A DNA stretch of 27,264 nucleotides from a virus (taxonomy: Duplodnaviria > Heunggongvirae > Uroviricota > Caudoviricetes): IMG/VR virus record IMGVR_UViG_2690316318_000023, positions 1-27,264 of that record, one strand, 5' to 3'. Shown here in pieces: positions 1 to 16,438 of this stretch (its first letter is position 1; every line of letters starts with the position of its first letter). A program made the translations under genes and the position numbers. The notes under the pieces were generated by a model. That model made no database searches, was not told the origin of the DNA, and was given only the letters and a program-made list of their open reading frames with translations.

Positions 1-282
1 CTACCTTTGCCTCTTGCCGCCATTTAACCGGAAGGCGTTACCGTTCGGTTGCGCTATCCCCATGCGGTGTTGCGTTTCGGTAACAGCTTTATGCAGGTCG
101 CCAAATTCCTCAACCTTCACGGGCGGGCGCTTCACGTTCTCCAGACACGTTTCACGGCGGCGCTTTATCCATTCCCGATCATCGTCCTCGGTGCATAACA
201 GCATGACTTCCATCCATCGTGCGGCAGCTCTCCGGTATAGCCCTTTTGACTCCAGCTCTTCAGCTTTCCTGTCCCTTATCAT
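1..282 (-). CDS. PerC-family-like small transcriptional activator (93 aa)
   Basis: Complete minus-strand ORF (ATG at 282, TAG at 3-1) with GAGAGG Shine-Dalgarno 5 nt upstream. Sequence (MIRDRKAEELESKGLYRRAA...) recalls PerC-type activators of enterobacterial islands; this is from memory and unverified. Confidence 0.5.
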   Translation of the reverse strand: MIRDRKAEELESKGLYRRAAARWMEVMLLCTEDDDREWIKRRRETCLENVKRPPVKVEEFGDLHKAVTETQHRMGIAQPNGNAFRLNGGKRQR

Positions 283-311
283 TTCTGCCTCTCAGATTAT
301 ATAGATAAGCA

Positions 312-357
312 AAAAGGTGTTGGTTCAGTTGGTTCAGTTGGTTCAATTTGTAAAGAG
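312..357. repeat. Left copy of a 46-bp perfect inverted repeat; contains tandem GGTTCAGTT/TTGGTTCA iterons (crr-like)
   Basis: Read directly: aaaaggtgttggttcagttggttcagttggttcaatttgtaaagag is the exact reverse complement of 7776-7821. Further GAACCAAC copies lie at about 391-420. Confidence 0.85.
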
Positions 358-769
358 CGTTGTTTTTATTGTGTTTTTTCTAAAATATTGAACCAACATC
401 AACTCATTTTGAACCAACAAAAAGTGTCCGTGAACTAACACTCTGTCAAATAGTCACTACATATATTAACGGTGAAGACTAAATCCGCCAGCAAATAGCT
501 TATATAGCACCGCTTTATGCCGCAGTTATGCTGGAACAGTAATCATTTCACAGAACCGCCTAACTACTATATGGCACCTGCTAAAAAGCACATCAGCCTA
601 GTCAGTTGATCGGTGCATGGATATCCTAACAATTCAACTATATAACGTGATCTCCCATGTCGATCTACTGTCATGCAATGATTAACAAACACATAGACAC
701 ATCTGCTTGGCGCATTGATTAATCACTGATCATCCATCAGGATATGCGAACCACCGTCACCAGGTTAGG

Positions 770-1855
770 ATGATTCTCAAAAGCCACCTGTATTCAATGC
801 CTTTGATGGGTTTCATCCATAGTTATTTTCTCGTGACTGACATGGAGATTTTGATTTCAAGGTGTGCAAAAACTATCGCAGAGTACAATGGAGCTCAAAT
901 GACTGTGGCACCAAAAGATCAAAGTTTGAAATCTGTAAGGGTGGGCTTTTACACAAGCTCTGAGAATATTCGCACTAGTAACAAGGGGTTAACCGCAGAG
1001 GCCTTTAAAAATCTGTATGATCGGTGTTCTAAAGACTTCAAGATGACCCACTATGCAGACTTTGGTGAAAGAGAACTTAAAATTCATTTTCTAGACATCT
1101 CACCCGAGGATGGCTCCTACTTCGGATTCATGTCTCGAAGAAGAAAAAGCGCAACACTGGCATATATTACAGATAAAGAGTGGGTGGAAGAGAAAATCCC
1201 TCTAGCCGGGGCAAAGACTCTTTCAGAACGTACATACTTTATTTATTATCCTCAGACAGACATTCTAGTATTGTCTTTAAATCATTTAGGTCCACGCCAT
1301 AGTGACTTAGCCTTCCTTCTTTTCAACTCCAGTGATCGCGGAGTCCCTGTTTCTTTTGAAGCCATTTGGAAAGAAGAAAGCATCAAAGAACTACTCGAAA
1401 CTGGATCCAATCTAAGAAGCTGCGAGATTTCTGTGGCCATCCCAAGAAACTTCAATGCCGCACAGTATCAACTCGATGGAATGTTCGCGAATCAGATGAT
1501 TGAGATGATCAGAGGCACCAGTTCAAGCCACCTGACTATTTCGTTACGCGGACATTCTCCATTAAAAAGAAAAGCAAAGGGATGGCTTGAGGATGACGTT
1601 AAAAAAAGCCTTAAGGAGATGCTAGAAAAGTTCCCTGGTGGTGATGGTCGTTTAACTTTTGAGAAAGCAAATGTTGTTGCTCAGGGCGATAAAAAGAAGA
1701 AAAGTCTTGTAGACGAAGTTCTTACGGTAAAGAAGATGGTGCCTATCCAAGCAGATGGGTATCCGACCGATACTGACGTTAAAAATGCTATGCTACAAGC
1801 AAAGAATGACAACCTTAGGTATCTAACCCAGTACTATTTGGTTAGTCAAACGTAA
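770..1855 (+). CDS. Hypothetical protein, large subunit of cargo module A (361 aa as drawn; true start may be ATG 899)
   Basis: Long ORF in visibly AT-rich DNA. The best Shine-Dalgarno (GGAG, 5-nt spacer) precedes the in-frame ATG at 899, so the N-terminus is uncertain. No catalytic motif recognisable by eye. The next gene follows 12 nt downstream. Confidence 0.6.
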   Translation: MILKSHLYSMPLMGFIHSYFLVTDMEILISRCAKTIAEYNGAQMTVAPKDQSLKSVRVGFYTSSENIRTSNKGLTAEAFKNLYDRCSKDFKMTHYADFGERELKIHFLDISPEDGSYFGFMSRRRKSATLAYITDKEWVEEKIPLAGAKTLSERTYFIYYPQTDILVLSLNHLGPRHSDLAFLLFNSSDRGVPVSFEAIWKEESIKELLETGSNLRSCEISVAIPRNFNAAQYQLDGMFANQMIEMIRGTSSSHLTISLRGHSPLKRKAKGWLEDDVKKSLKEMLEKFPGGDGRLTFEKANVVAQGDKKKKSLVDEVLTVKKMVPIQADGYPTDTDVKNAMLQAKNDNLRYLTQYYLVSQT

Positions 1856-1867
1856 CAGGAATACATT

Positions 1868-2305
1868 ATGAGTTCTCGGAAATTGTTTGCTGCCAAGTCA
1901 TTGTTTGCTCTAGCTATGGCTATTGCTGGTGCCCATTTTTTACACGACCTAGATCACAATGCTGTCATTTCGGCTGCTGGTGCTCTTTCAACTATTTCTG
2001 GAGTTCTCTTTGGTTTTGTTTTGGCATCAGTCACCATGCTAAGTAGCTTTGATAGTTCAAAGGGAATTGTAGGCGCTCTAAAAAGTAACGGAGTACTAAA
2101 AGGCATTATTGAGGGGCTTTTTGATACAGGAACTACGCTGATCACAGCCTGCCTATTAGCAATGATCTCGATGTTTGCCCCTGTTGTCAGCAATCTGCCT
2201 CTGGATTATTATGCCCTGCTACTCGCAGGGGCATATTTGATTATATCAATGATAACTTTTTTCTTTAACTGGAAATCTTTATCTAAAATAATAAGTTACA
2301 TATGA
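1868..2305 (+). CDS. Small four-helix integral membrane protein (145 aa), second gene of cargo module A
   Basis: ATG preceded by AGGA. Four hydrophobic helices are visible (LFALAMAIAGAHFL, ISGVLFGFVLASVTML, TLITACLLAMISMFAPVV, YYALLLAGAYLIISMITFFF). Same strand and AT-rich composition as 770-1855. Confidence 0.7.
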   Translation: MSSRKLFAAKSLFALAMAIAGAHFLHDLDHNAVISAAGALSTISGVLFGFVLASVTMLSSFDSSKGIVGALKSNGVLKGIIEGLFDTGTTLITACLLAMISMFAPVVSNLPLDYYALLLAGAYLIISMITFFFNWKSLSKIISYI

Positions 2306-3067
2306 TAAATATTTCAAAATGAGTCCCCCTGCTACGGATAGTCCTTGGCTTAAAAAATACCGTCACCGCTGAATACCCACACAGTGCCCCCACCCATTTA
2401 GTTGGCATAATGTATTCAACTGATTGAGGAATGGCTCCTCTTTTACTACCAAACGGCCATCGCTGGCGCATTCATCCGCTGGTAGTGGAACTTTTTAGCC
2501 ATCAGCGCCTCCCTAAATCAATTCCTTACATCGCTCAAATTCAACAACCATTGTTGTAATCTTGCTGCTATCAAGTAACGCCTTTGTATTACGCCGACTT
2601 TATCTTGCCAGCAACATACGCCATCCGATAATTTCGATGTTACGCGCGCATACTTGTCGCAAAATATCAGACAAAAGCCAGATTCAGAACGTCGTGATAA
2701 CCACCAGCACAACAGAGAGGTCATGTAACGCGATTTATCACATCAGATACATGTGATTGGTGTACCAGCATAAAACATCGTCATAGCGCGTCCTGTGCGC
2801 ATATACGCCGATAATCAACACATCACCACCACTCTGTCTCGTGTAGAGAACAGTTTCATGGTATCCCCCGCCATCGTGTGCGTACTGGTCGGACGCAGTT
2901 GCAAAAAATTTTGCAACTGATACCCCTCGCGCGCGTACTGGTCACGAAATTGGTGTTTTGCTGTGGCAGTGATATCAGAAAAATCTTCCTGTTTCACATA
3001 AAGCGGATATGCGCGTACTGTAACGGCCCCATCAACGGGGATCGGATTTGAAATCCCGACCCAAGCT

Positions 3068-3487
3068 ATGTACCAAATGCCATGTCTTGGATATATGATG
3101 ATTGCCATTCTAAACAAAGCTAAAGGGAGGGTTGGTGTGAATGCTCAGGCTGTCATCATGGTTTTCCTTGGTCTGATTGTCGCAAAACTATATCCAGACT
3201 GGTGGAAAGGGGCATTAGCAACTGTCGCCATCTATTTGCTTTTATCCGTCGTTAAGCGATCGTTCGTTAAGACCGTAAATCAAGCAAAACGTTTCTCATT
3301 TAAGAATTTAATAAACTATATTACTGGGCTTATTTTTTGCCTTTCAATTTTGATCGCCTCAGCTTTTTTGCCCGTATCAATAGCTAATTTTTTTGGCGCA
3401 CCATATGAGGTAGGTTATCTATTCTCTGTTTTTTGCCTTGTTCTTTCCCTTCTTTACCTATGGATGAGAGCAAAGAACAAAAATTAG
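3068..3487 (+). CDS. Small multi-pass membrane protein (139 aa as drawn; probable start GTG 3137, about 116 aa)
   Basis: GGGAGGG Shine-Dalgarno sits 6 nt before the in-frame GTG at 3137. Four hydrophobic segments. Convergent with the 701-aa gene. Confidence 0.55.
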   Translation: MYQMPCLGYMMIAILNKAKGRVGVNAQAVIMVFLGLIVAKLYPDWWKGALATVAIYLLLSVVKRSFVKTVNQAKRFSFKNLINYITGLIFCLSILIASAFLPVSIANFFGAPYEVGYLFSVFCLVLSLLYLWMRAKNKN

Positions 3488-3500
3488 CCATCCATGGCTA
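3485..3500. terminator. Short hairpin (TAGCCA-TCCA-TGGCTA) between convergent genes; T-run follows on the minus strand
   Basis: Palindrome read directly. Flanked by an A-run on plus (ATTTTTGTTC on the minus strand), consistent with termination of the minus-strand three-gene operon. The stem is short, so confidence is low. Confidence 0.3.
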
Positions 3501-3505
3501 ACCAG

Positions 3506-5611
3506 TTATTGAGCTTCTTTTTGTGATGCCTGTGCGACTCTGGTGAGCGATTGTGTGACCGTACTGATCGCTCTGTCATATGCTGTGCTACCTTTTGGCG
3601 TATTTGCCAGACGTAACAAGGCATTTCGTATAACAGGGCTTTCGTATGCCTTCGCTGCTCCGCCTACGGCACCAGCAGCAGGAACAACAAACGCAGCCGT
3701 TTTTAGCATCCCCGCTAATACTGCTGCGTTTATGATGCCACCACCAACTAACAATCCATAAAGCTGCTGACCATTTAAGTTTTGAACGTTCGCTTTTGCC
3801 GCGTGTCTTGTATCGTTGAGGTATTTAATAACGCCGTCCAGTTCCTTTCCATGTACGCCTTTAAAGAAAGTTGCTGATTGCTTCCTGTTCCGGTGTAACG
3901 CATTAATAAACTTCTCAACACTGATATTTCCAGACGGATCAGTCGCCTTATCTACAGCATTCTGAACTATGGCTGCTCGTGCGTTTTGCCTACCATTGTC
4001 ATCCAGAAGCCTGTAAAGCTGAGAACGTTCTGATGGGCTTTGGCTAAAAACGAGTTTTGTTACATCCTCAGGCGTGGCCTTGCCGCTGGCTATTGCCTTT
4101 TGAACGCGCGTTCTTCCCATCATGTCATTGAATTTAGACCATGAGCGATCAACCCTTGCCATATTAATGGCTTCGTCTGCTCCAAGATTTTTGGCTACGG
4201 CTTTTTTCATATCCGCCGTATATGCCTTGTAGATAATATCGCTGGCTTTCTGGAGCGTATCTTTATCAACAGTGTCAGATGACGCCATAAATCGCTTTCG
4301 AAGATCGGTTCTGTTTTCCCTCGCCAGACGCAGGTCATTTGGTCCGCTGGTGATATCGTCTTTAAATTGCTGCAAGACTTTTACCGCGGCTCTATCCTGA
4401 GATTTGCCCGGGCGGCTTAACACGGCAATCTGATTGTCGATAGCTTTTACCGTGTTTGAGAGATCGACAGGGGTATCCCCCATAGCGTCAATTATGCGGT
4501 TATATCGCTTTCCTGCTGCCTCAATGAATTTTTGTTGCCCTTTAGTCGCAGATTCATAAAGCTGTTTATCAGAAATGCCACCCAGACCATCGCTAAATGT
4601 TCTGACTAAATTTTCTCGTGCTTGTTGTTGATTCAGCCGATTCTTACCGGTTCCAAAAAAAGGAACTCTTTCGCCTAATGTCTGAGCCTGACTCTGCATA
4701 AAGGTTTTATCTTTCAGCATGTCACTGGTCATTAACGGCAGATTTCTTTCCGATGCAAAGTCGACAGCAGCCTTTGCTTCAGGCGACATATCACCACGAA
4801 CAGCCCTCGAAACCGCACTCGCTGTATTTTCCAGCCCCTTACCAATACCACCAATGCCAGCAGAAATTACCGTTTGTAACGGATCAATATCTTCTCCACC
4901 AGCAAGGCTGGTGGCTCCCTGTAGTGCTAAATCTGTAGCTGCTGATTTTCCTATGGCACCAAGCACCGTTCCAGCCCTGCCCGCTGGTGTAAACGCCAAC
5001 GCATTAGCAAGAAACGAGGTCAGGTCTTGCGGTGATAAACCCGGCTTGTTCAGGGCATAATCACCTGATGGCAGAGAAACGATAGTATTCCCCTTCTCAT
5101 CCTGCCTTAATGTCGCCCCCATTCCCTGAAGAATCTTTTCCTGAGACGCGTCAGAGCCGAAAAGTTGAGACCATCCAGCCTTTAGGGCATCCATGCTTAG
5201 TGAGTTCAATTCTGGGGCAGAGGCGACATTTTGCAGTCTCTCCATCTCTGGAGTCATTCGGCTTTCGCCTGTTATAGCATCGCGCATCGCAGCCCCAAGA
5301 CTGGCTCCCTGTTCTGCTGAACGCTCAAGCCCCTCTCTTTGCTGAGTAGCTAACTTTGCATACCCTGACGCAAGAGAATTATCAGATGATGTATGTTGAA
5401 TATTTTGAGTTGCTGATTGGGATCGGTCTATTTCATTCGTTGATGGTAGTGGATAGGCAGCATAAAAAGCCTGCTTAGCCTGCTCTACACTTTCTCCGGC
5501 TTGCGGGGCCACGACTTCATTGAAGTATTGCTCCTGAGCCTGCGCTTTTTGTTCTGGTGCTAACGCCTGATACTGTGGAGAGGCGATAACATCTTTCCAT
5601 GCTTTAGCCAT
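3506..5611 (-). CDS. Hypothetical protein (701 aa), distal gene of the three-gene cargo operon; Ala/Gln/Ser-rich with a C-terminal hydrophobic Gly/Ala-rich segment
   Basis: ATG at 5611-5609 overlaps the upstream stop (TAATG) and is preceded by GGGGTGA. No Walker A or nuclease motif seen by eye. C-terminal LLVGGGIINAAVLAGMLKTAAFVVPAAGAVGGAA looks membrane-associating. Confidence 0.8.
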   Translation of the reverse strand: MAKAWKDVIASPQYQALAPEQKAQAQEQYFNEVVAPQAGESVEQAKQAFYAAYPLPSTNEIDRSQSATQNIQHTSSDNSLASGYAKLATQQREGLERSAEQGASLGAAMRDAITGESRMTPEMERLQNVASAPELNSLSMDALKAGWSQLFGSDASQEKILQGMGATLRQDEKGNTIVSLPSGDYALNKPGLSPQDLTSFLANALAFTPAGRAGTVLGAIGKSAATDLALQGATSLAGGEDIDPLQTVISAGIGGIGKGLENTASAVSRAVRGDMSPEAKAAVDFASERNLPLMTSDMLKDKTFMQSQAQTLGERVPFFGTGKNRLNQQQARENLVRTFSDGLGGISDKQLYESATKGQQKFIEAAGKRYNRIIDAMGDTPVDLSNTVKAIDNQIAVLSRPGKSQDRAAVKVLQQFKDDITSGPNDLRLARENRTDLRKRFMASSDTVDKDTLQKASDIIYKAYTADMKKAVAKNLGADEAINMARVDRSWSKFNDMMGRTRVQKAIASGKATPEDVTKLVFSQSPSERSQLYRLLDDNGRQNARAAIVQNAVDKATDPSGNISVEKFINALHRNRKQSATFFKGVHGKELDGVIKYLNDTRHAAKANVQNLNGQQLYGLLVGGGIINAAVLAGMLKTAAFVVPAAGAVGGAAKAYESPVIRNALLRLANTPKGSTAYDRAISTVTQSLTRVAQASQKEAQ

Positions 5612-7077
5612 TAATCACCCCATAGTGAAGAAAAGTTACTGCTGGCTGCTGGCTGTGATACCTGCTCAGATTGCGGCAATGTCTGCGACGAAGAAGCAGT
5701 TCCTCTGTCAACTGCTGAAATAACCCGCAAAGCATCATAAGTTCGACCAGAAGCAGCTTTCAGCGAATTGAACTGGTTTTCCATCTTCCGGCGCTTGGTA
5801 TCAATGGTTTTTGTGGAATCACCAGGCTGAGGGAAATACATTTGATAATATTTGGACATTTCAGCTGGTAGGATAGATGCCCCTGTTTCCTGACGGAGTA
5901 TTGCCATTATTGCGTCATTAGCATTAACAACGTATTGCTGCTCTGCTGGGCTGAGCGTTAAGTTAGCCAGCGTCCCATTACCCAAAGCATTATTAATGAT
6001 CGCCACTCGCTGTGGGCTAAGCTGGTCTTTCAGTGTATCTATTGAATCAAGAGCATCCCTAACCCTGTATGCAAATCCAGCAGCTTTTTTAGCCCCTTCT
6101 GGCGACTTTTCCATGATCTTTTGGGCTGTTGGCAAAGCTATTGGACGAAACCCATCTCCAGATATTGGCTGGTTTAGTTTTCCCTGCTCTTCACTTCCGT
6201 CTGTGTAGTATTTTGTGACAGTGCCATCATCGTTTTCTCTAACACTCATTAATTTTTTGGCGTTTGTATTAATTCCAGCCGCTGCCGCAAATGCCGCCGC
6301 CCCCTCTGGATCCGCCTTTAACATTTGCGCGTACTGATTGTAATTCTGCATTGCTGCTGTTGGTGCATATGCTGACGTTAACGCATTTGCTCGGCTAATA
6401 TCCTGCCCTCTCGCCTGAAGTGCTTCGCCAGCCTGATTGCTGCGGATTGTCTCTGCCAACTTGCCACGCTCAATATCCCGACCTTCCATTTGATCTTTGA
6501 TATCGAAATACTTCTCATGACCGAGAGAAAACAGCGCCAGATTACCTGCGAAATGCTGGAAGCCCTGCGGGTCATTAACCTGCATTTCAGCAATAGTTTC
6601 TGGAGGGATACCTAAACGACGCATCTCCTGCTCATTATCCATCATGAACCTGCCAAATGCGCCCTGACCAAGCGATGAGGCTACCTGTGCTTTGAGCGCC
6701 AGATTGCCATAATCATCCCTTTGAGCATCATCGACATAACTCATCCCTTTACGGACTTCCTCAAACTCTTCTGGGAATGCTGTAATAAGATTACGCATCT
6801 GCTCCCTGTCACCGGACGCATAAGCATCTGCATAACCTTTCTGGAATGCCGCTTTACGCTCCTGCTGTTGCTGCTGCTTATAAATATCAGCAACGCCAGC
6901 CAGACCACGAAGACCTGTCAGAGCAACGTTATTTGCACCTGAGCGAGCCAGTTCATTGTTTTCGCGGATCAGACCAAGCGTTGCGTTAATGTCGCTTGCC
7001 TTTGGCGCATTCTCGTTTTGCGCACCAATGCCAGCCAGAAAACCACCAGAATTAATACCCTGTTGCCACGTAGCCAT
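5611..7077 (-). CDS. Hypothetical protein (about 488 aa from ATG 7077; ORF open to GTG 7089), middle gene of the three-gene cargo operon
   Basis: Long ORF, translationally coupled to the 701-aa gene. Gln/Ala-rich (QQQQQERKAAFQ), no recognisable enzymatic motif. Confidence 0.8.
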   Translation of the reverse strand: MATWQQGINSGGFLAGIGAQNENAPKASDINATLGLIRENNELARSGANNVALTGLRGLAGVADIYKQQQQQERKAAFQKGYADAYASGDREQMRNLITAFPEEFEEVRKGMSYVDDAQRDDYGNLALKAQVASSLGQGAFGRFMMDNEQEMRRLGIPPETIAEMQVNDPQGFQHFAGNLALFSLGHEKYFDIKDQMEGRDIERGKLAETIRSNQAGEALQARGQDISRANALTSAYAPTAAMQNYNQYAQMLKADPEGAAAFAAAAGINTNAKKLMSVRENDDGTVTKYYTDGSEEQGKLNQPISGDGFRPIALPTAQKIMEKSPEGAKKAAGFAYRVRDALDSIDTLKDQLSPQRVAIINNALGNGTLANLTLSPAEQQYVVNANDAIMAILRQETGASILPAEMSKYYQMYFPQPGDSTKTIDTKRRKMENQFNSLKAASGRTYDALRVISAVDRGTASSSQTLPQSEQVSQPAASSNFSSLWGD

Positions 7078-7081
7078 TGAT

Positions 7082-7255
7082 TTACCCACGTCCAGTTAAA
7101 GTGTAAGCCAGCGCCTTATCCATTAATCCCCGAGCAATTTCATGGATCGTTGGCGCAACTCCTACCTCTGATTTTTTACGCTGCTCCTCCTGAATTTTCT
7201 TTATCGCTTCCATTTGCTTCTCACTTATCAATACTGGCTTTACTGAAATAGCCAT
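7082..7255 (-). CDS. Small hypothetical protein (57 aa), first gene of the three-gene cargo operon; possible small DNA-binding or regulatory protein
   Basis: ATG at 7255 preceded by AAGGGGG (4-5 nt spacer); its stop lies 2 nt before the next gene's ATG. Translation: MAISVKPVLISEKQMEAIKKIQEEQRKKSEVGVAPTIHEIARGLMDKALAYTLTGRG. Confidence 0.5.
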   Translation of the reverse strand: MAISVKPVLISEKQMEAIKKIQEEQRKKSEVGVAPTIHEIARGLMDKALAYTLTGRG

Positions 7256-7288
7256 AACGCCCCCTTAGAACTGTATAAAACAACAGTC

Positions 7289-7294
7289 ATTATA
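7289..7294 (-). promoter_or_regulatory. Candidate -10 hexamer (TATAAT on the minus strand) for the three-gene cargo operon
   Basis: Perfect TATAAT about 35 nt upstream of the 57-aa ORF start. No good -35 at 17-bp spacing, so it may be activator-dependent. Confidence 0.3.
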
Positions 7295-7350
7295 GTTTCA
7301 TAAAACGCAACATTCATCATTGTGATTGCAAAATATGAAACAAATAGCAC

Positions 7351-7383
7351 AAAAAAATGCCACCGCTCAGTAGCTGGTGGCAT
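7351..7383 (-). terminator. Rho-independent terminator (minus strand) downstream of the primase/iteron region, insulating the cargo operon
   Basis: Hairpin ATGCCACC(GCTcagtAGC, T bulge)GGTGGCAT with 8+3 bp stem; on the minus strand it is followed by a 7-nt U-run (plus-strand A-run 7351-7357). Confidence 0.55.
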
Positions 7384-7577
7384 CGTTCTGTGTGTCAGGT
7401 TTTGACAGGTTTTTTATGGACTCTAAAAACTATATTTATGGTGTCGCATTACTCTTCACGGCAGGCGCTTTTCAGTTCTGCCCTTGCTTCTGGCTCCATT
7501 GGTAATTTGATTCGCGATCAGCTATGCGGATGGTTTGCTGAACAGGCATAACAACTTCTCAGGGGCTGTTTTCTGAA

Positions 7578-7653
7578 CTACGAAAATTTCGTAGTGCTCA
7601 CTTTCAAAAACGTCACGCCCTTGTACACAGGATTTTACGAAAGTCTCGTAAAA
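7578..7653. promoter_or_regulatory. Two related palindromes (CTACGAAA-a-TTTCGTAG at 7578-7594; TTTTACGA-agtc-TCGTAAAA at 7634-7653), operator-like
   Basis: Both read directly; they share a TACGA/TCGTA inverted core. Located between the ori-like iterons and the terminator. Confidence 0.3.
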
Positions 7654-7689
7654 CACTCTCTGATGCCAGCCAGGTGTTGTGCGCATCAA

Positions 7690-7821
7690 TTCAGTCACAT
7701 TGTGTTGGTTCAAAATACCGTGTTGTTGGTTCGGTGTTGGTTCAATAAAAAGAATAAAATCCTTACAAAACAATACTCTTTACAAATTGAACCAACTGAA
7801 CCAACTGAACCAACACCTTTT
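7690..7821. repeat. Iteron array immediately downstream of the primase gene (ori-like); includes the right copy of the 46-bp perfect inverted repeat (7776-7821)
   Basis: Multiple TTGGTTCA/GAACCAAC copies. 7776-7821 (ctctttacaaattgaaccaactgaaccaactgaaccaacacctttt) is the exact reverse complement of 312-357. Confidence 0.8.
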
Positions 7822-7839
7822 CTACGCACATGAAGAAGC

Positions 7840-10596: not shown

Positions 10597-10608
10597 TCTG
10601 GCCCCCGT

Positions 10609-11211
10609 TTAGTGCGTCACTGGTGCTTCTGGGATGCCGTTTTCGTTTAGTTCGGCAATAAAGCTGTTGTGAAGATCGGCAAGCACTTCTCGCCCAAACG
10701 AAGTGAGTGTTCCCTGTTCGACATCGAACATGTTGCTGTAAAAAATGATGGCATTCTTTGTTCCGACATCAACACCATATTTCTCGATCATTGCGCCCTC
10801 AATGTTGTTTGCCATAGCGAGGCGCTCTGCTACTGGATACAGCGGCATGGCGACGATGCCATTGGAATAAACAGAAACCACGGAATGATTGCCACTGTCA
10901 TCAATAATGCTGACGGTGCCGTTTTCCTTTCTCATTTCATTGATGAATGCTGTTGCTATCAGCCAGCGCCACATAATCACGTGATGCTGTGATGTGTAAT
11001 CGAAATATCCCTGGTTGCCGCCACTGGCAATAGCGAGATGTATAAACATGCCTTCATCTGGTTTATCGTCATAATCCCCGGCATCCAGACGATTTACGGC
11101 ATCAATATATGAGACGGCCTCAACGCGTTCTGTCATGCCATCGTTGCTGCGGTACATGATGTTTACGCCGTCAGGCGTTGCTTCTGCATGGAAGGTTAAG
11201 AAATTATTCAT
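10609..11211 (-). CDS. Hypothetical protein (about 200 aa from ATG 11211), immediately upstream of the primase
   Basis: ORF extends to 11316 in the track, but the ATG at 11211 overlaps the upstream stop (ATGAATAA) and is the likely start. No recognisable motif. Confidence 0.6.
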   Translation of the reverse strand: MNNFLTFHAEATPDGVNIMYRSNDGMTERVEAVSYIDAVNRLDAGDYDDKPDEGMFIHLAIASGGNQGYFDYTSQHHVIMWRWLIATAFINEMRKENGTVSIIDDSGNHSVVSVYSNGIVAMPLYPVAERLAMANNIEGAMIEKYGVDVGTKNAIIFYSNMFDVEQGTLTSFGREVLADLHNSFIAELNENGIPEAPVTH

Positions 11212-11425
11212 GTTTCGCCTCGCCTGAATGATTCTGTAACTCATATTTGCCCAACAATTCGTCCGCTTCCTGAATAGCTTCTGGTACGCCATTGAGCAGT
11301 GACATAACCGCGCCAATCATTAACTTGTCTCTGTTGCTGGGGCTGGCCCCTTCAAGCCAGAACCCTAAAACAGTCTGAACCTGTTCGATGCGACATTGCG
11401 CTTCAATGAGCTGGATGTTGGTCAT
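11204..11425 (-). CDS. Small hypothetical protein (73 aa)
   Basis: ATG preceded by GGAGAG; overlaps neighbours in operon fashion. Confidence 0.55.
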   Translation of the reverse strand: MTNIQLIEAQCRIEQVQTVLGFWLEGASPSNRDKLMIGAVMSLLNGVPEAIQEADELLGKYELQNHSGEAKHE

Positions 11426-11685
11426 TTCGCACTCTCCACATCGATTAAACTGATATCTATCAGGGAGGTAACTTTTTGTAGCCAGCTATTGATTACTGTC
11501 GCCTGTTCCCCTCCCACCGAGGGAACAATCTCATTCATCACATGAACCAGACCTGTGCGCGCTCTGGTAAGCCGTTCAGTCGCGCAATCTGCGAGAGTGA
11601 ATGTGTCTGGATATGGCTCTTCTCTCCCCAGCAATGATTCAATTTCCAGCTCACACGGATGACGATAAATTAAGTTGATATTCAT
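11422..11685 (-). CDS. Small hypothetical protein (87 aa)
   Basis: ATG preceded by GGGGG; start overlaps the upstream stop (ATGA). Confidence 0.55.
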   Translation of the reverse strand: MNINLIYRHPCELEIESLLGREEPYPDTFTLADCATERLTRARTGLVHVMNEIVPSVGGEQATVINSWLQKVTSLIDISLIDVESAK

Positions 11686-11876
11686 TTTTCACCCCCAAGA
11701 ATTACCAGCTCTGCACGGGCATCGTTAACCAAAGATGAGCACGCTTTAATCGCATCCACGACATCAGCAGCGTCCATTTCTTCAGCCGAAAGACTGACAG
11801 CAACCAGGACAGCCGCTACTTGCTCAATTAATTGAAGTGCTGACGTAAGGCGAGGGGTATTAATTGAGTTATTCAT
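11682..11876 (-). CDS. Small hypothetical protein (64 aa from ATG 11876)
   Basis: GGGGG Shine-Dalgarno 6 nt before the ATG at 11876. The track ORF extends to 11933 but has no ribosome-binding site there. Confidence 0.45.
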   Translation of the reverse strand: MNNSINTPRLTSALQLIEQVAAVLVAVSLSAEEMDAADVVDAIKACSSLVNDARAELVILGGEK

Positions 11877-12936
11877 TGGTTGCCCCCGTTTTTCCTGGCA
11901 TTTGTCCACCTTCCAGCAGGAAATGAACGTCACGAACGGCGAGATCCAATATCGCGAGTAACGCCTTCAGCCTTTCGTCTCGTGAGGGAGAGTTGCTCAC
12001 CAGAATGTCGTTAATCACTTCTGTCAGTGTGATGATCTGGCTTGTGCGTTCGAGGGGATCCATATGCACATCGTAGGTTTTAATCATGTGCCACCTCCAT
12101 GCGGATACGACCAGCAAAAAAGCAGACGTGATCGCGCACCAGAGAACGGCGAGCATCGCGTTCAGACTCGGCAGCAATATGATGAATTTTGGCGGTAATT
12201 GTCGGGCAATCGCGGCGAACTGCGGCGATAATCCAGATAAATTGCGGTTTTTGGGTAGGGGTAGTAGCCAGCATGTGGCAGCCTCCTTCAGATAGCAGGT
12301 TACGCTACCACCGGAAACGCCAATTTCGCTGGTGGTAGCCCAGACAGGGTTGGCGTAACCGGCTCTGAAGGATACCGGCGCTTCCGAAGAAGCCCCCGCC
12401 TGAGCCACCATTGATTGACAAAGGCGCTGGATTATACACCAACGCCCAAAAAATGGGTGAGTCAGACCTACGACATAAAAAAAGACGCTCGGCGCGTCAT
12501 ATGTCGCCTTCAGAATTTTCAGGACGCCAATCCCGGCACCCGTTTTATGAGGTGCCTTATAACCATAAACCGTGTTGCCGCATAACGGCAAGCTCTTTTT
12601 TATGGACTCCGAAAACTCAGTATTGGAAGCACCAGATGCACAATACATCGCGCTCATTTCGTTAACGTCGCGCGTATGGACGAAGGTTTTTGTGGAGTCA
12701 CTACGCGAGCAGAGAAAGCCATCTACGACCAGAAATTCTCTGGCGCAGCCGCTGACCTTCTCAACGCTAACACCATCGACCGTAATTTCTGACATAGTTA
12801 AGGCATCCGCTCCTACCACCAGAAAATGATAAACTTTGCTTGTATCTGCTGTATTAATGCCAGACTTTGCTGTCATATTGCTGGATTTTGGTGACATACC
12901 AGCCAGTGAAAATATCTTCTTCTGGACGGTTAGCAT
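11869..12936 (-). CDS. ORF of uncertain structure (355 codons open); N-terminal part looks like a real protein, C-terminal part overlaps alternative small genes
   Basis: ATG at 12936 has a GGAGG Shine-Dalgarno. The frame is open to 11869, but strong GGAGG-ATG sites also occur at 12274 (other frame, 64 aa) and 12087 (same frame, 72 aa), so the real gene boundaries are unclear. Confidence 0.35.
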
Positions 12937-13112
12937 TTGTTAACCTCCGCGAACTCCTTCATGAAGCGCGCCAGCGGTTGTACGCATGGCGATTGATACC
13001 CGTCGCGATAAAACGTCACTCGGTTGTGAGACACGCTTTCGACAGTAACGAGTGCTCCGTGGGCATCTTTGTAGCGTTTTTGAGGTTGTGGTGTTCCTGT
13101 TGGCTTAGACAT
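12930..13112 (-). CDS. Small hypothetical protein (about 60 aa from ATG 13112)
   Basis: GGAGG Shine-Dalgarno 6 nt upstream of ATG 13112, which overlaps the end of the upstream gene. Confidence 0.45.
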   Translation of the reverse strand: MSKPTGTPQPQKRYKDAHGALVTVESVSHNRVTFYRDGYQSPCVQPLARFMKEFAEVNKC

Positions 13113-13938
13113 TGACCGCCTCCAGACGCTTGGCGAGCCAGCGTTGCGACAGGCGGGTGAGTTCTCCTTTGCGCTGCTCATATTCCATGCCCATATCAAT
13201 TAACGTGATATTGGTGCTTTCGAGATATGAGAGGTGCTCAAGCTGTTCTGCGTTCATATGGTCGCGAGGTTCGCCAGAATAGCCATTTATCCGCGCCCAC
13301 TGCTTAGCAGTTAGCCCACCAAGAACGATACGAGAAATCATATTGCTCTCGTTTGTGTAGTGGTGTTGCTGCGTCGTTTTCCCCTGCTCGGCACGGGCCA
13401 TATTCAGCGCATCGCACATTGGCTTAAAGTTGTTTGCGGCACTGATACGGGCTTTTAGCTGGCGACGATAGCGGGCGGCGATTTCAGGCACGCTACGCTG
13501 TAATTCTTCCTCGCACTGGATGAAATAACGGCGGATAGCGCGACCCTGATCATTGCGTTCGATCATTGCCAGTTCTTTCGCCATTCCGACACTTAACAGA
13601 TAGTCTTTGCCGGGTCTGCCAGACTGCTTAATCTTGCTGTAAGCCGCGCCATTCGGGCTTTTCCCCAAATTTGGGGAAATTGTTTTATGGACTGAGTAAT
13701 CGTGCCCAATGGTGAAGTCATATTCAGAGATGCGATCAGTGATCCATGTAGAGAAGTCTTTTCCCACGCCCAACGCTTTGTGTAACGCTTTTGCGCTAAC
13801 AATATTGGTTTCACGCCCACCGATATGACCAGGAATAACCGGGACAATTGCGGCAAATTCATTACCGTTAATTGTGCTCAGAGAGGCGTTCAGATGAGGG
13901 GCGGCCTCAGAAATTAATCTGCTTTTTTCGATGTTCAT
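13105..13938 (-). CDS. Phage antirepressor-like protein (277 aa)
   Basis: GGAGA Shine-Dalgarno. The N-terminal region (DYLLSVGMAKELAMIERNDQGRAIRRYFIQCEEEL) resembles the antirepressor/Rha-type N-terminal domain of phage regulatory proteins; recalled, unverified. Confidence 0.7.
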   Translation of the reverse strand: MNIEKSRLISEAAPHLNASLSTINGNEFAAIVPVIPGHIGGRETNIVSAKALHKALGVGKDFSTWITDRISEYDFTIGHDYSVHKTISPNLGKSPNGAAYSKIKQSGRPGKDYLLSVGMAKELAMIERNDQGRAIRRYFIQCEEELQRSVPEIAARYRRQLKARISAANNFKPMCDALNMARAEQGKTTQQHHYTNESNMISRIVLGGLTAKQWARINGYSGEPRDHMNAEQLEHLSYLESTNITLIDMGMEYEQRKGELTRLSQRWLAKRLEAVNV

Positions 13939-13950
13939 TTTCAGTCTCCG

Positions 13951-14382
13951 TTAAGCGGCGTTAAACGCGTCCGGGTAGAGTTTCAGAATGTCGGCAATTT
14001 CCTGCTGAGAAAGTCCGTTGTGATCATTTATGTTCGCAAGATGGTTAATATGAGTGATCACTTTCAGAACATCACCACGGCAGGAGAAACGGTAGCGAAG
14101 GTGTGTTCCGATACCATCAGGATTCTTTTCGTCGATACGCTCCAGAGTGATTCCAAGCTGGCGTTCTAACTCTGTTGCATAGTTACGACCAGAAGACAGA
14201 CGGCAGTAGCGAAGAATGTCGTTTTCTGTCCATCCCTCTATACCAGTACGCAGCATATAGACTCGGGCACGATGCTTTTTCGGTGTGCGCTTTGGTGCTT
14301 GAAGGGATTTTGTAAGGGGCGTAATATCAGATACGCGAATATCTGAATTAGCCGCCTGTAATGGGCGGTTTTTCTTTTCCAT
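13951..14382 (-). CDS. Hypothetical protein (143 aa), basic N-terminus
   Basis: ATG overlaps the alpA stop (ATGA); no recognisable domain. Confidence 0.65.
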   Translation of the reverse strand: MEKKNRPLQAANSDIRVSDITPLTKSLQAPKRTPKKHRARVYMLRTGIEGWTENDILRYCRLSSGRNYATELERQLGITLERIDEKNPDGIGTHLRYRFSCRGDVLKVITHINHLANINDHNGLSQQEIADILKLYPDAFNAA

Positions 14383-14585
14383 CAGGCCACCTCGTCTCTA
14401 GATTCTAATATACACTTCTCAATCCATTCATCTATTTCAGACTCAACAAAAGCAATAGCCCGACTTCCAATTTTTACCTGTTTAGGGAACCTCCCCTGAC
14501 TAATAAGACGATAAATCCATGCTTTGCTATAACCAGTTCGCCTTTGAACTTCAGAGAGACGAATTAATGAATTGTAATTAGCCAT
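14382..14585 (-). CDS. alpA: AlpA-family phage regulatory protein / excisionase-like HTH (67 aa)
   Basis: Size, position next to int, and the motif ...RLSEVQRRTGYSKAWIYRLISQGRFPKQVKIGSRAIAFVESEIDEWI are typical of AlpA-type regulators. Confidence 0.85.
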   Translation of the reverse strand: MANYNSLIRLSEVQRRTGYSKAWIYRLISQGRFPKQVKIGSRAIAFVESEIDEWIEKCILESRDEVA

Positions 14586-15012
14586 TTATTAATATCCTGT
14601 ACTAATGACGCAATAACCCCCTCCTGCAACGAATGGCGAGAGTTTTATTTGCGTCAAATGTCGAATACGCCAAAGACCACAATATGAAAAACATATTGCG
14701 GTCTTTTATAAAAGATAGTCAGATTGTTTTGGTTTGTTTGCTCCACAAGGGTAGAGCTACCCTGCATTTCGGCAGGATCACGCTATTAGGCGTGACATCC
14801 AGTAGTTTTAAAGAACAATTGCGCTTTGTCAGCGCCAAAGCCTGTTAAAGAACATTCCGCTTTTCAGCAGCGTAGAAGGCTCAATACACCTTCGTTTATA
14901 AAAGAGCGATTGCCCTTCTCCAGGGCTAACTGTTAAATAGCAATCCTCTGTGAGTTTTTATCAATCTACTCCCCTATACTTTAGTAAACCTCTGTATACT
15001 TGTCCAGTTGTT

Positions 15013-16227
15013 TCATGCGTGTTTTTCAAACACCATATGCACCACATTTCCGCCATGCTCGAGAGAATCCATATAGTCGGCATACCATTGAAGCATCTCC
15101 CGCCTTCCATCCAGATATTGCGCATGGTTGTATGTGCCACGAATTGAGTTCTTATCAACGTGAGCGAGCTGCGTTTCTATCCACGCGGTGTTATAGCCCT
15201 GCTCATGCAAAATCGTACTCATAGTGTGCCGGAACCCATGACCAGTTACACGTCCAGCGTAGCCAATGCGCTTAAACACTTGGTTTATGCTGGCCTCACT
15301 CATTGTTTTCCTTGGATCATTGCGCCCGGGAAACATAAGAGGGTAATTGCCTGTTATTTCTCTAATCTTCCCAATAAGCGAAAGAGCCTGCTCAGACAAT
15401 GGCACAATATGAGGCCGCCGCATTTTCATACGTGAAGCGGGTATCTCCCAGAGAGCCTTGTTGAAATCAATTTCATCCCATAATGCGCCACGTAGTTCGC
15501 CAGTCCGCAAGCCTGTGATAATCAGTAGACGAGCCGCCATAACAACCAATGCGCTTCCTGAGTAACTGGACAATGCCTTGAAAAAATCAGGTAATTCTTT
15601 GGCTGTAAGGAAAGGGTAATGATTAGATTCATGGCCTTGCATCGCGCTAGTAAGGTCTGGTGCAGGGTTATACTCTGCGCGACCAGTGACTATTGCATAG
15701 CGGAAAACTTCCCCGCACCGCTGCCTCACTTTTTTGGCTTTTTCTGTAGCACCGCGCCCCTCGATGCGCCGCAGCACATTCAGAAGTTCAAGTGGTTTGA
15801 TTTCGGCGATTGGTTTTTTGCCAATGTAAGGGAACACATCTTTGTTGAAGGCTTCGAGGATGTCTGAAGCATAACCAGCAGACCATTTTTTTAATTTGCT
15901 GCTGTGCCACTCAAGGGCAATATCTTTGAAGGTGTTGTTTAACTGCGTTTCCCGGGCAATCTTTTCCTCTCGTTTCGCTTCCATCGGATCGATACCACCA
16001 GCGATACCTCTTTTCGCATCTTCACGTTTTGCCCGAGCATCGGCTAGAGTAACCTCAGGATACACACCTAGTGCCAATAGCTTCTCTTTACCAGCTACAC
16101 GATATTTAAGTCGCCAGTATTTACCTCCATTAGGTTTTACCAAGAGATACAAACCGCCACCATCGGCCAGCTTGTAAGCCTTCTCTTTTGGCTTGGCTGT
16201 GTCTATTTGACGGGCATTGAGTTTCAC
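15013..16227 (-). CDS. int: P4-type tyrosine site-specific integrase (404 aa)
   Basis: N-terminus MKLNARQIDTAKPKEKAYKLADGGGLYLLVKPNGGKYWRLKYR and C-terminal HGFRHT...LAH...Y catalytic region. GTG start with GGAGG upstream. Adjacent to the tRNA fragment. Confidence 0.95.
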   Translation of the reverse strand: MKLNARQIDTAKPKEKAYKLADGGGLYLLVKPNGGKYWRLKYRVAGKEKLLALGVYPEVTLADARAKREDAKRGIAGGIDPMEAKREEKIARETQLNNTFKDIALEWHSSKLKKWSAGYASDILEAFNKDVFPYIGKKPIAEIKPLELLNVLRRIEGRGATEKAKKVRQRCGEVFRYAIVTGRAEYNPAPDLTSAMQGHESNHYPFLTAKELPDFFKALSSYSGSALVVMAARLLIITGLRTGELRGALWDEIDFNKALWEIPASRMKMRRPHIVPLSEQALSLIGKIREITGNYPLMFPGRNDPRKTMSEASINQVFKRIGYAGRVTGHGFRHTMSTILHEQGYNTAWIETQLAHVDKNSIRGTYNHAQYLDGRREMLQWYADYMDSLEHGGNVVHMVFEKHA

Positions 16228-16291
16228 TTGGGGGTACCTCCACTAAACCGAACAGCAAATACCCCCATAAGTACCCCCATCTGACCGTAGA

Positions 16292-16375
16292 TTTTGAGGG
16301 ACTTTAGTAGACGTCAAAAGACGAACGGGGCTTTAATACGCGGATTATAAGGGGTTTTGAAAGACTTTAGTAGAC
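16292..16375. repeat. Pair of 21-bp direct repeats (TTTTGAnnGACTTTAGTAGAC) between int and the att core; candidate integrase arm-type sites
   Basis: Read directly at 16292-16312 and 16355-16375 (2 mismatches). Confidence 0.4.
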
Positions 16376-16392
16376 TTGGGGAGATGTTTGAA

Positions 16393-16438
16393 TGGTGCCG
16401 ATAATAGGAGTCGAACCTACGACCTTCGCATTACGAAT
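16393..16438 (-). pseudogene. tRNA-Thr 3' fragment (46 nt: anticodon loop through CCA end), att-core repeat beside the integrase; not an intact tRNA
   Basis: The minus strand reads ...TTCGTAATGCGAAGGTCGTAGGTTCGACTCCTATTATCGGCACCA (T-loop GGTTCGACTCC, acceptor stem, CCA), matching my recollection of E. coli thrW. The upstream sequence cannot form the 5' acceptor/D arm. Confidence 0.6.

Follow-up and report, generated by a model that had tools for sequence, protein, structure and literature searches.

Gene content of the locus

We analysed a stretch of 27,264 nucleotides of DNA (the window), corresponding to positions 1 to 27,264 of the IMG/VR virus record IMGVR_UViG_2690316318_000023. Its first 16.4 kb carry a P4-type tyrosine integrase, the regulator AlpA, an AntA/AntB-family antirepressor, an RNA immunity module with an Icd-like gene, a chain of small overlapping genes, a primase-helicase and two genes for ejection proteins of the phage P22 type (Table 1). 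Positions 1-16409 are very likely the right-hand 16.4 kb of an 18.1-kb phage-inducible chromosomal island (PICI), a phage satellite, that belongs to the type of EcCIMP1 and was integrated at thrW by its P4-type integrase, with a lambdoid prophage in tandem. EcCIMP1 is a 19,963-bp PICI of Escherichia coli MP1, located at a tRNA-Thr gene between proA and yagU and bounded by the repeat TCCTATTATC (Pick, Stadel & Raivio, ISME J 2025; PMC11773190). A first-pass annotation, made from the letters alone, had listed an integrase, AlpA, an antirepressor, overlapping small genes and a primase with zinc ribbon and TOPRIM; open reading frame (ORF) and family searches recovered them all, the primase with a DUF927 domain in addition, and all on the minus strand.

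Table 1. Features of the window (coordinates in window positions; TM, transmembrane; identities to EcCIMP1 are those of the MP1 element).
Position	Strand	Feature	Support or remark
1-282	-	PerC-family regulator, 93 aa	Pfam PerC, E 4e-30; 100% to EcCIMP1_025 (MP1) and A29
319-418		Distal iteron cluster, candidate second cis replication site	5 exact TGAACCAAC; inverted duplicate of proximal cluster; beside PerC
899-1855	+	RexA-like protein, 318 aa (longer ORF from 770)	Homologues carry DUF6731
1868-2305	+	RexB-like small membrane protein, 145 aa, 4 predicted TM helices	Hydropathy layout
2598-3062		Conserved segment, right border of variable cargo slot	94% identity to EcCIMP1 (blastn)
3068-3487	+	Small protein, 4 predicted TM helices	Convergent with gp16-like gene, 18 nt from its stop; sieA position of P22
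3506-5611	-	P22 gp16-type DNA ejection/transfer protein, 701 aa	phrog_770 'DNA transfer protein', E 2e-163
5611-7089	-	P22 gp20-type ejection protein, 492 aa from GTG (488 aa from ATG at 7077)	Pfam Inj_translocase, E 1e-83; phrog_917
7082-7255	-	Conserved 57-aa leader gene of cassette (orf57)	No family match
7348-7392	-	Intrinsic-terminator-like hairpin with T run	Between origin region and ejection cassette
7703-7814		Proximal iteron cluster, candidate replication origin	Directly 3' of primase gene
7840-10596	-	Primase-helicase, 918 aa	Zn_Ribbon_Prim, Toprim_3, DUF927; phrog_1139; 99.5% to EcCIMP1
10609-12087	-	Five small genes with overlapping stops/starts, from Icd-like gene to primase	87-100% identity to EcCIMP1
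12080-12274	-	Icd-like protein, 64 aa, first gene after antisense RNA	NCBIfam phage_ICD_like, E 4e-20; 100% to EcCIMP1
12328-12415	-	C4-type antisense RNA	Rfam RF01695, 79.9 bits
12478-12555	-	isrK-like element with upstream a1/b1 target sites	Rfam RF01394, 67.8 bits; ends in terminator hairpin
12930-13112	-	DUF4222 protein	Pfam, E 2e-24; RefSeq gene call in A29
13105-13938	-	AntA/AntB-family antirepressor, 277 aa	Pfam AntA, E 1e-21; 98.6% to EcCIMP1
13951-14382	-	Conserved 143-aa protein (orf143)	No family match; 100% to EcCIMP1; in 57/80 related loci
14382-14585	-	AlpA regulator, 67 aa	Pfam Phage_AlpA, E 7e-20; 100% to EcCIMP1 alpA
15013-16227	-	P4-type tyrosine integrase, 404 aa	Arm-DNA-bind_3, Phage_int_M, Phage_integrase; 99.5% to EcCIMP1 Int
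16257-16375		att-arm direct repeats, AA(A/G)TACCCCCAT x2 and TTTTGA..GACTTTAGTAGAC x2	Matching TACCCCCAAAAGTACCCCCA at opposite element end
16394-16438	-	3' 45 nt of tRNA-Thr(CGU) thrW, ending in anticodon loop	Identical to thrW in E. coli A29
16439-16640		attP-derived arm of thrW-integrating lambdoid prophage, outside island	93-95% to annotated attP of HK446, mEpX2, HK542, mEp213
20868-27261		Lambdoid prophage J (cut by contig end), lom, stf, tfa	

Judged from its sequence, the island is an EcCIMP1-type element in att core, gene order and near-identity. In blastn against the MP1 locus, DNA identity was 96-98% over 7107-16438 and 95% over 1-441; positions 442-7106 were unlike EcCIMP1, yet matched the elements of E. 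coli A29 and of ABU 83972. The gene order of EcCIMP1 (Int, AlpA, antirepressor, Ash region, DUF927 primase, PerC) was kept in the island, and the backbone proteins were 87-100% identical (Table 1). Megablast found at least 80% of positions 1-16500 in 162 complete E. coli genomes, and the match stopped at or slightly before 16438 in 15 of the 15 records listed, with an identity of about 97-99%. This recurrence and the common end of the match argue that the island is not a chance pattern.

Attachment site, boundaries and tandem prophage

The att core had been traced in the first-pass annotation to a tRNA gene, and the match is indeed identical to thrW of A29, where the source gene adjoins the same integrase; ARAGORN found no intact tRNA in the window. 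The recombination core proper is smaller than the tRNA-derived fragment, however: it comprises only the 10 bp GATAATAGGA at 16400-16409, the reverse complement of the published EcCIMP1 repeat, and the remainder is shared with the att site of a prophage. As expected for integration at thrW, the core stood as a direct repeat at both element ends, and exactly two copies were present in each of MP1 (19,963 bp apart, as published), A29 and ABU 83972. The full 46-nt tRNA fragment was considered as the repeated att and rejected, as it had no second copy in A29 or ABU 83972; the repeat is the 10-bp core only. In both of these genomes the element lies at thrW, beside proA. The vat island adjoins the element in CFT073-like strains.

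The window holds a single core copy because it begins inside the element. Contig CYCK01000037.1 (assembly GCA_001286085.1; labelled L094), which was reached through the exact 488-aa gp20-like protein, was 100% identical to window 1-17077 with zero mismatches. It carries the second core copy, which had been proposed to lie in the flanking genome, 1.70 kb to the left of window position 1 (cores at contig positions 669 and 18777), giving an element of 18.1 kb. Position 1 of the previously assigned extent, 1-16438, is thus only the edge of the window. The 1.7-kb part to the left contains three further genes, one of them for PRiA4_ORF3, as it does in A29 and MP1. At the left junction, chromosomal GATGGTGC is followed by the core GATAATAGGA and then by the island, and the junction represents a slightly degenerate 3' end of thrW; ATAGATACCCCCAAAAGTACCCCCA follows the left core inside the island and mirrors the integrase-side repeat AA(A/G)TACCCCCAT.

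Window 16387-16640 matched the attP of thrW-integrating phages, and the tRNA fragment from the core up to 16438 is common to the attachment site of the neighbouring prophage. Since the attP arm lies right of 16438, thrW holds island and prophage in tandem. They meet in the 45-nt fragment: its left part up to the core serves the island, and its right end, the anticodon loop, is the point at which the prophage att diverges. E. coli HS and other genomes also have this junction of thrW fragment and prophage arm beside P4-type integrases, and an exact search for it among species-representative genomes returned four loci.

Antisense RNA immunity module

Between the DUF4222 gene and the small-gene chain lies a module of two structured RNAs and the Icd-like gene. 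A TATAAT hexamer (12431-12436) precedes the start of the C4 model by 16 nt. The loop of the window C4 RNA, CCUUCAGA (b'), is complementary to UCUGAAGG, which occurs both in the isrK-like element (b1) and over the icd ribosome-binding site (b2), and its single-stranded ACGCCAA (a') is complementary to UUGGCGU at both target places (a1/a2). In A29, b' is CCAUUCGA and faces UCGAAUGG at b1 and b2, with the same ACGCCAA and UUGGCGU at the a sites. MP1 and ABU 83972 share a further type, in which b' CCUUGUAC faces GUACGAGG at b1 (with one G.U pair) and GUACAAGG at b2, and a' CUGCGAA faces UUCGCAG at a1 and a2. Across the four elements, the C4 loops thus covary in three ways with the upstream sites and the sites over the icd ribosome-binding site. 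The icd gene was 100% identical in all four, despite a divergence of ~40% between immunity types in the region 12287-12531.

The pattern extended beyond these elements. In 47 of 50 C4-type hairpins with icd context, the 8-nt loop word had complementary sites on either side, upstream and downstream; with the a' and b' loops considered together, the figure is 47-48 of 50. The b' words numbered 9 and the a' words 4, in 12 combinations. The pair of C4 and isrK was also detected by Rfam in six of the seven diverse relatives scanned. These covarying words suggest that many heteroimmune types exist inside one satellite family. Because the coupled chain downstream of icd ends in the primase, the C4 RNA would keep replication switched off and, at the same time, set the heteroimmune type. 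The immI layout of phages P1 and P7 and the logic of the CI RNA of P4 are well established, and the island module resembles both; the Rfam families C4, c4-a1b1 and isrK relate to the immI region of P1/P7. The RNA immunity module is not mentioned in the EcCIMP1 paper (PMC11773190).

This module also bears on the family known as Ash. The Pfam model Phage_ASH matched residues 124-232 of a 355-aa ORF (11869-12936, minus strand; RefSeq 'ash family protein'), and this match, at 12241-12567, coincides precisely with the two structured RNAs (isrK-like and C4) plus the icd leader. In functional EcCIMP1 this ORF is truncated. As the match coincides with the RNA region and the ORF is truncated there, conservation of the 'Ash' family may come at least partly from structured RNA. 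This doubt matters, since Ash/epsilon serves as a core marker of P4-like satellites.

Replication genes and candidate origin

From the Icd-like gene to the primase, the chain at 10609-12274 shows stop/start overlaps of 4-8 nt. Residues 7-361 of the primase-helicase were 33% identical to P4 alpha, the alignment being limited to those residues, and residues 403-813 matched PDB 8tch_A, a 'Pathogenicity island protein' helicase, with a relation to the SCCmec Cch1 helicase family. These matches agree with the earlier expectation that primase and integrase would have homologues in satellite or island families.

The 9-mer iteron TGAACCAAC occurs in 10 exact copies in the window, against 0.21 expected, and these copies form two clusters. 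The proximal cluster consists of three tandem copies, an AT-rich spacer and two exact inverted copies with a near-copy at 7724-7732. Both clusters are kept in MP1, A29 and ABU 83972; they lie 7.4 kb apart and flank the variable 7.3 kb. We regard them as a candidate replication origin and a candidate second cis-acting site. The ori and crr sites of P4 form such a paired-cluster layout, which the island clusters recall.

Classification

The SatelliteFinder definition of a PICI includes the trio of integrase, AlpA/Stl-type regulator and primase-replicase, all of which are present (PMC10085698). Pfam and PHROG searches returned no match to PICI capsid-morphogenesis or small terminase genes (same definition), nor to capsid, portal or terminase families, for any ORF scanned in the window. 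With capsid morphogenesis and small terminase absent, the island scores as Type C, with three of the five PICI core components (PMC10085698). EcCIMP1, which likewise has no recognisable capsid or terminase genes, was scored as Type C by its authors (PMC11773190).

The backbone had previously been assigned to 'P4-like satellites or phage-inducible islands'. The second half of this assignment holds, given the DNA identity of 96-98% to a PICI, but a strictly P4-like nature does not: psu, delta and sid are absent, as had been noted before, with no Pfam or PHROG match to them in any ORF of 1-16438. For this reason, and given the doubtful 'Ash' match, the island has at most four of the seven P4-like core components (PMC10085698). 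A true P4-like satellite that exploits a P2-like helper through capsid remodelling would explain the P4-type integrase with AlpA, the similarity of the primase N-terminus to P4 alpha (33%), the Phage_ASH match, the C4/CI-type RNA immunity and the two iteron clusters reminiscent of ori and crr. We consider such a satellite extremely unlikely. Besides the missing Psu, Delta and Sid families, the helicase half of the primase is of the DUF927 and not the P4 alpha type, the module behind the primase encodes P22-type ejection proteins, and in experiments on the near-identical EcCIMP1 the helper was the podophage Kapi1 and not a P2-like phage.

Ejection cassette

The region 358-7775 had been singled out as accessory cargo. 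This fits the Rex-like pair described below, but 3506-7255 proved to be a cassette of P22-type ejection genes. Its gp16-like protein was 68% identical to proteins of phages N7 and HZ41 and about 32% to those of P22-like phages and Sf6, and Pfam Phage_P22_gp16 matched the identical protein in CYCK01000037.1. The gp20-like protein was 51% identical to that of APSE phages, and its N-terminal half was 56% identical to P22 gp20. Both genes lie downstream of the primase, as do the 'DNA transfer' genes of EcCIMP1, of which they represent a very different allele class. The cassette is led by orf57, for which an AlphaFold2 (AF2) model predicted an extended N-terminus followed by two helices; a fold search gave no significant match, and the idea of a ribbon-helix-helix protein comes from this secondary-structure layout alone. 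A scan for a sigma-70 promoter upstream of the cassette found none. The product of 3068-3487 was considered as a P22 SieA and rejected: similarity, the conserved SieA motif and a PHROG match were all lacking, and the gene position alone agreed. The P22 pac sequence had no match in the window at up to 3 mismatches, a result that carries little weight.

At least 80% of the cassette was present in 302 E. coli genomes. In E. coli MS 21-1 (L011), the same cassette (99.8% DNA identity) is combined with another integrase, a yicC/ligB site and a DUF5906 primase. Two further loci, L092 and L098, carry it with another integrase at the yicC/ligB site, L098 with a DUF5906 (P4-alpha-type) primase and L092 with a DUF927 primase. 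Since the cassette occurs on different backbones, the int/att, primase, immunity and cassette modules reassort independently.

Probably the cassette contributes to the island's exploitation of its helper. A simple copy of the genes of a known helper is ruled out by the gp20-like protein of EcCIMP1, which is at most 29% identical to phage records. In P22, the superinfection exclusion protein SieA blocks DNA injection, and escape mutations from SieA map to the C-terminal parts of gp16 and gp20 (PMC10883804). Genes 16 and 20 belong to the most variable part of the virion gene set, and P22 virions accept very different foreign E-proteins in place of their own (PMC10883804). The island variant keeps exactly genes 20 and 16, the SieA-escape pair. 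Because a satellite must enter cells, helper lysogens included, its own gp20 and gp16 in helper particles would benefit the island. Alternatively, the cassette may interfere with helper infectivity or confer superinfection immunity as in EcCIMP1.

Related loci

We surveyed 80 of the 204 IMG/VR relatives that were found by a primase scan. The order Int, AlpA, orf143, AntA, DUF4222, C4/Icd and primase was widely kept among these loci. orf57 was present in 57 of the 80 loci and, in all 53 loci where both were detected, it lay directly upstream and on the same strand of large genes for virion-internal or DNA-delivery proteins. The type of these genes varied: P22-type gp20/gp16 in 7 loci, a tape measure protein of full length (903-1046 aa) in 18, a tape measure protein with transglycosylase domain in 6 (mostly with a baseplate hub), a 'lytic tail protein' in 9 (mostly with a hub) and internal virion proteins with transglycosylase domain in about 9. 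Examples of the other cassette types are found at L018 11451-14162, L025 15436-18147, L050 15062-17666, L030 9077-16244 and L040 15660-22643. Among the papers available for searching, none was found that describes this family-wide cassette pattern. The Pseudomonas satellite phiAH14b is a more distant relative with experimental support.

It is conceivable, though on present evidence rather doubtful, that the gp20/gp16-like genes belong to a swappable 'ejectosome' cassette, of which they would be one allele class, and that this cassette defines a wide enterobacterial satellite family. If so, the satellite would load its own DNA-delivery proteins into helper particles, with the possible purpose of passing the injection-blocking superinfection exclusion of helper lysogens, or of widening the range of cells that can be entered. 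Such a role would explain why EcCIMP1 does without packaging and capsid genes, as well as its effect on superinfection of helper lysogens. The distal att sites of the IMG/VR relatives were not located, as many contigs break off at the integrase and the 12-nt repeats observed look like chance; since the distal ends are not fixed, the generalisation to the whole family is provisional. The PICI model of SatelliteFinder may reject the variants with tape measure or hub genes, because tail genes are among its forbidden components.

The survey also bears on the idea that the locus is an immobile, decayed remnant of a P22-like prophage that retained its integrase, regulators and ejection genes. The gp20-like, gp16-like and convergent membrane-protein genes do stand in P22 order, the AntA antirepressor and the Icd/C4 module are known from phages too, and the MP1 copy was initially reported as an 'incomplete prophage' (PMC11773190). 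We nevertheless regard a remnant as very unlikely. A unit of 18-20 kb with the same att core recurs in the E. coli genomes examined, the core genes are intact in the four copies compared, and the layout Int, AlpA, AntA, C4/Icd, primase, orf57 and cassette is fixed in 80 loci while the cassette content varies. Moreover, no capsid, portal, large-terminase, tail-tube or lysis family was found among 56 ORFs of four related loci (three of them complete predicted-provirus contigs), which contained one Sf6-type small terminase, and EcCIMP1 is mobilised only with a helper.

Accessory genes

The left part of the island carries a variable slot with a Rex-like pair. The TM helices of the RexB-like protein lie at nearly the same positions as those of lambda RexB (144 aa). 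The pair combines a RexA fold with an adjacent four-TM partner of about 144 aa, the arrangement of RexAB. At the sequence level, comparison with lambda RexA/RexB gave an hhalign probability of 0.3 and a BLASTP E of 1.8, with only a GPxxSDL motif in common. PADLOC models had no matches on the cargo and cassette proteins, except for a weak candidate-system match on AntA. The Rex-like pair is likely abortive-infection cargo. In EcCIMP1 this slot is occupied by alpA_1 and in two relatives by an Abi_2 gene, and because of this varying content we read it as a hotspot for defence and accessory genes. Next to the distal iterons lies the PerC-family gene; the identical PerC-like protein of EcCIMP1 silenced LEE1 expression in Citrobacter rodentium (PMC11773190).

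This cargo raises the question of whether the locus might instead be a defence or pathogenicity island with a tRNA integrase, outside the satellites, or a piece of plasmid or integrative and conjugative element backbone. The Rex-like pair and PerC-like regulator aboard, Abi_2 in the same slot of relatives and the vat island adjacent in CFT073-like strains would suit such an element. Relaxase, type IV secretion system and plasmid partition genes were absent from the scanned ORFs, however, and of 11074 matching places (megablast) 11028 were chromosomal and only 46 on plasmids, contrary to what a plasmid backbone, raised earlier as a possible objection, would predict. Given also its own primase-helicase with adjacent iteron origin, its helper-type virion genes and a near-identical relative that is packaged and transferred by a phage, a non-satellite element is highly improbable, and we retain the interpretation as an EcCIMP1-type PICI.

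Proposed life cycle

In the quiescent state, C4 RNA from a promoter of the island would pair with two short sites overlapping the icd ribosome-binding site, and this pairing would silence the translationally coupled operon of icd, small genes and primase. Induction can be sketched from EcCIMP1, which excises and circularises only with the helper phage vB_EcoP_Kapi1, a podophage (PMC11773190). There, helper induction activates alpA, in lysogens only; alpA and int are required for excision, circularisation and transfer, and the att core was mapped by attP sequencing (PMC11773190). The primase-helicase of the island would then initiate replication at the iteron origin 3' of its own gene, and the other iteron cluster, inverted and at a distance of 7.4 kb, may function like P4 crr. 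Having no capsid or terminase genes, the island would travel in helper particles, as shown for EcCIMP1, and its gp20-like and gp16-like proteins would most likely enter the helper virions and alter DNA delivery or the target cells. The host may benefit from the RexA/RexB-like pair as likely abortive-infection cargo and from the PerC-like protein, which would modulate virulence regulation as shown for the identical EcCIMP1 protein. EcCIMP1 also contributes to superinfection immunity of Kapi1 lysogens (PMC11773190).

Several points weigh against this reading. The evidence for excision and transfer comes from EcCIMP1 with Kapi1 and is extended to the island copy by analogy, and Kapi1 itself transduces EcCIMP1 at low frequency and very inefficiently (PMC11773190). 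For origin, RNA switch, Rex-like pair and cassette alike, the proposed function is deduced from sequence and fold. The gp20-like protein of the island is 26% identical to that of EcCIMP1 and its gp16-like protein had no match there at E 1e-4, and the island variant is without the gp14-like (DUF2824) and gp7-like genes of EcCIMP1 and ABU 83972. As the ejection proteins differ so strongly, the helper use of EcCIMP1 is not simply transferable to the island. In addition, the gp20-like protein of EcCIMP1 is at most 29% identical to any phage record in the collection, and the tail genes of the neighbouring prophage are of the lambda type and do not belong to a P22-type virion; no P22-like phage is visible in the window.

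Integrase region and flanking DNA

The interval between int and alpA may be a second variable slot. A DUF6387 gene lies there in some thrW copies, and several relatives have the Rfam int-alpA RNA motif at this place (loci concerned: L093 and L095-L097, at 1420-2301, and L025, L040, L043, L050 and L051); the window has neither. This RNA (RF02996) was detected in five of the seven relatives scanned, and not in the window even at E 0.1.

To the right of the island, the distal end of the prophage (16439-27264) carries moron-like genes for GGDEF, YkgJ-like CxxCxxCC, HTH-cupin and GNAT acetyltransferase proteins. Among them is a very AT-rich MASE4-GGDEF diguanylate cyclase gene at 19167-20528 (GC about 0.29-0.33). 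An Rfam IS009 match of 184.9 bits lies at 20911-21109 on the minus strand, inside the tail fibre assembly gene. Because the homologous prophage end in E. coli ECOR29 carries an argU fragment instead, the att module has been swapped.

The left chromosomal flank (CYCK01000037.1 18790-21467) contains asrC, asrB and asrA, encoding anaerobic sulfite reductase. In E. coli genomes, asrCBA-like genes were only 77% identical and located on plasmids, which makes an Escherichia other than E. coli, or a close relative, the probable host.

Comparison with known systems

This kind of satellite is already known: a description of the family, with tests, appeared in 2025, and more than 160 complete E. coli genomes contain near-identical copies. 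The analysis adds the covarying RNA switch, the pairing of the iteron clusters, cargo of the Rex type, the tandem arrangement with a prophage at thrW and, possibly, an 'ejectosome' cassette common to the whole family.

The island shares with EcCIMP1 the thrW core, Int, AlpA, orf143, AntA, DUF4222, 'Ash', Icd, the small genes, the DUF927 primase, the leader gene, ejection genes and PerC. It differs in length (18.1 kb versus 19,963 bp), in lying behind a tandem prophage and not directly beside an intact thrW, and in its RNA immunity type at both the a and b sites. Its slot holds the RexAB-like pair rather than alpA_1, and its ejection cassette is of another allele class, without the transglycosylase-fused gp16. 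The variable DNA-delivery cassette may be how EcCIMP1-type satellites exploit or evade their helpers.

As in the P22 module (14, 7, 20, 16, sieA), the gp20 homologue of the cassette precedes the gp16 homologue, and a convergent small membrane-protein gene comes next. In contrast to P22, the cassette sits in an 18-kb island without other virion genes, and genes 14 and 7 are absent. The Rex-like pair differs from lambda RexA/RexB in having no detectable sequence similarity beyond GPxxSDL and in escaping detection by PADLOC.

Like the immI region of P1/P7, the RNA module combines a C4 RNA with a'/b' loops, a1/b1 sites upstream, a2/b2 sites over the icd ribosome-binding site and many specificity types. 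Conversely, the antirepressor gene of the island lies upstream of the RNA rather than downstream, and a replication operon follows icd, as in P4.

EcCICFT073 and EcCIEDL933 resemble the island in Int, AlpA as master regulator, a pri-rep gene, a PerC-like gene and a helper-dependent life cycle. In contrast to them, the island is without capsid-morphogenesis, small terminase and Rpp-type packaging genes and possesses the RNA immunity module. EcCIMP1 was reported as phylogenetically distant from PICIs of the EcCICFT073/EcCIEDL933 type (PMC11773190).

With P4 itself, the island shares a P4-type integrase at a tRNA gene, an AlpA/Vis-type regulator, an alpha-like primase domain (33%), C4/CI-type antisense immunity that precedes the replication operon and two separated iteron clusters. 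In contrast to P4, it has no psu-delta-sid genes, a DUF927 helicase replaces the C-terminal half of P4 alpha, its close relative uses a podophage helper, and it encodes ejection proteins instead of capsid-size or decoration proteins. Hence the island functions in the manner of a PICI and has the logic of its immunity and replication in common with P4. Because a P4-like antisense-RNA switch sits in an element filed as a PICI, the island blurs the boundary between the two groups.

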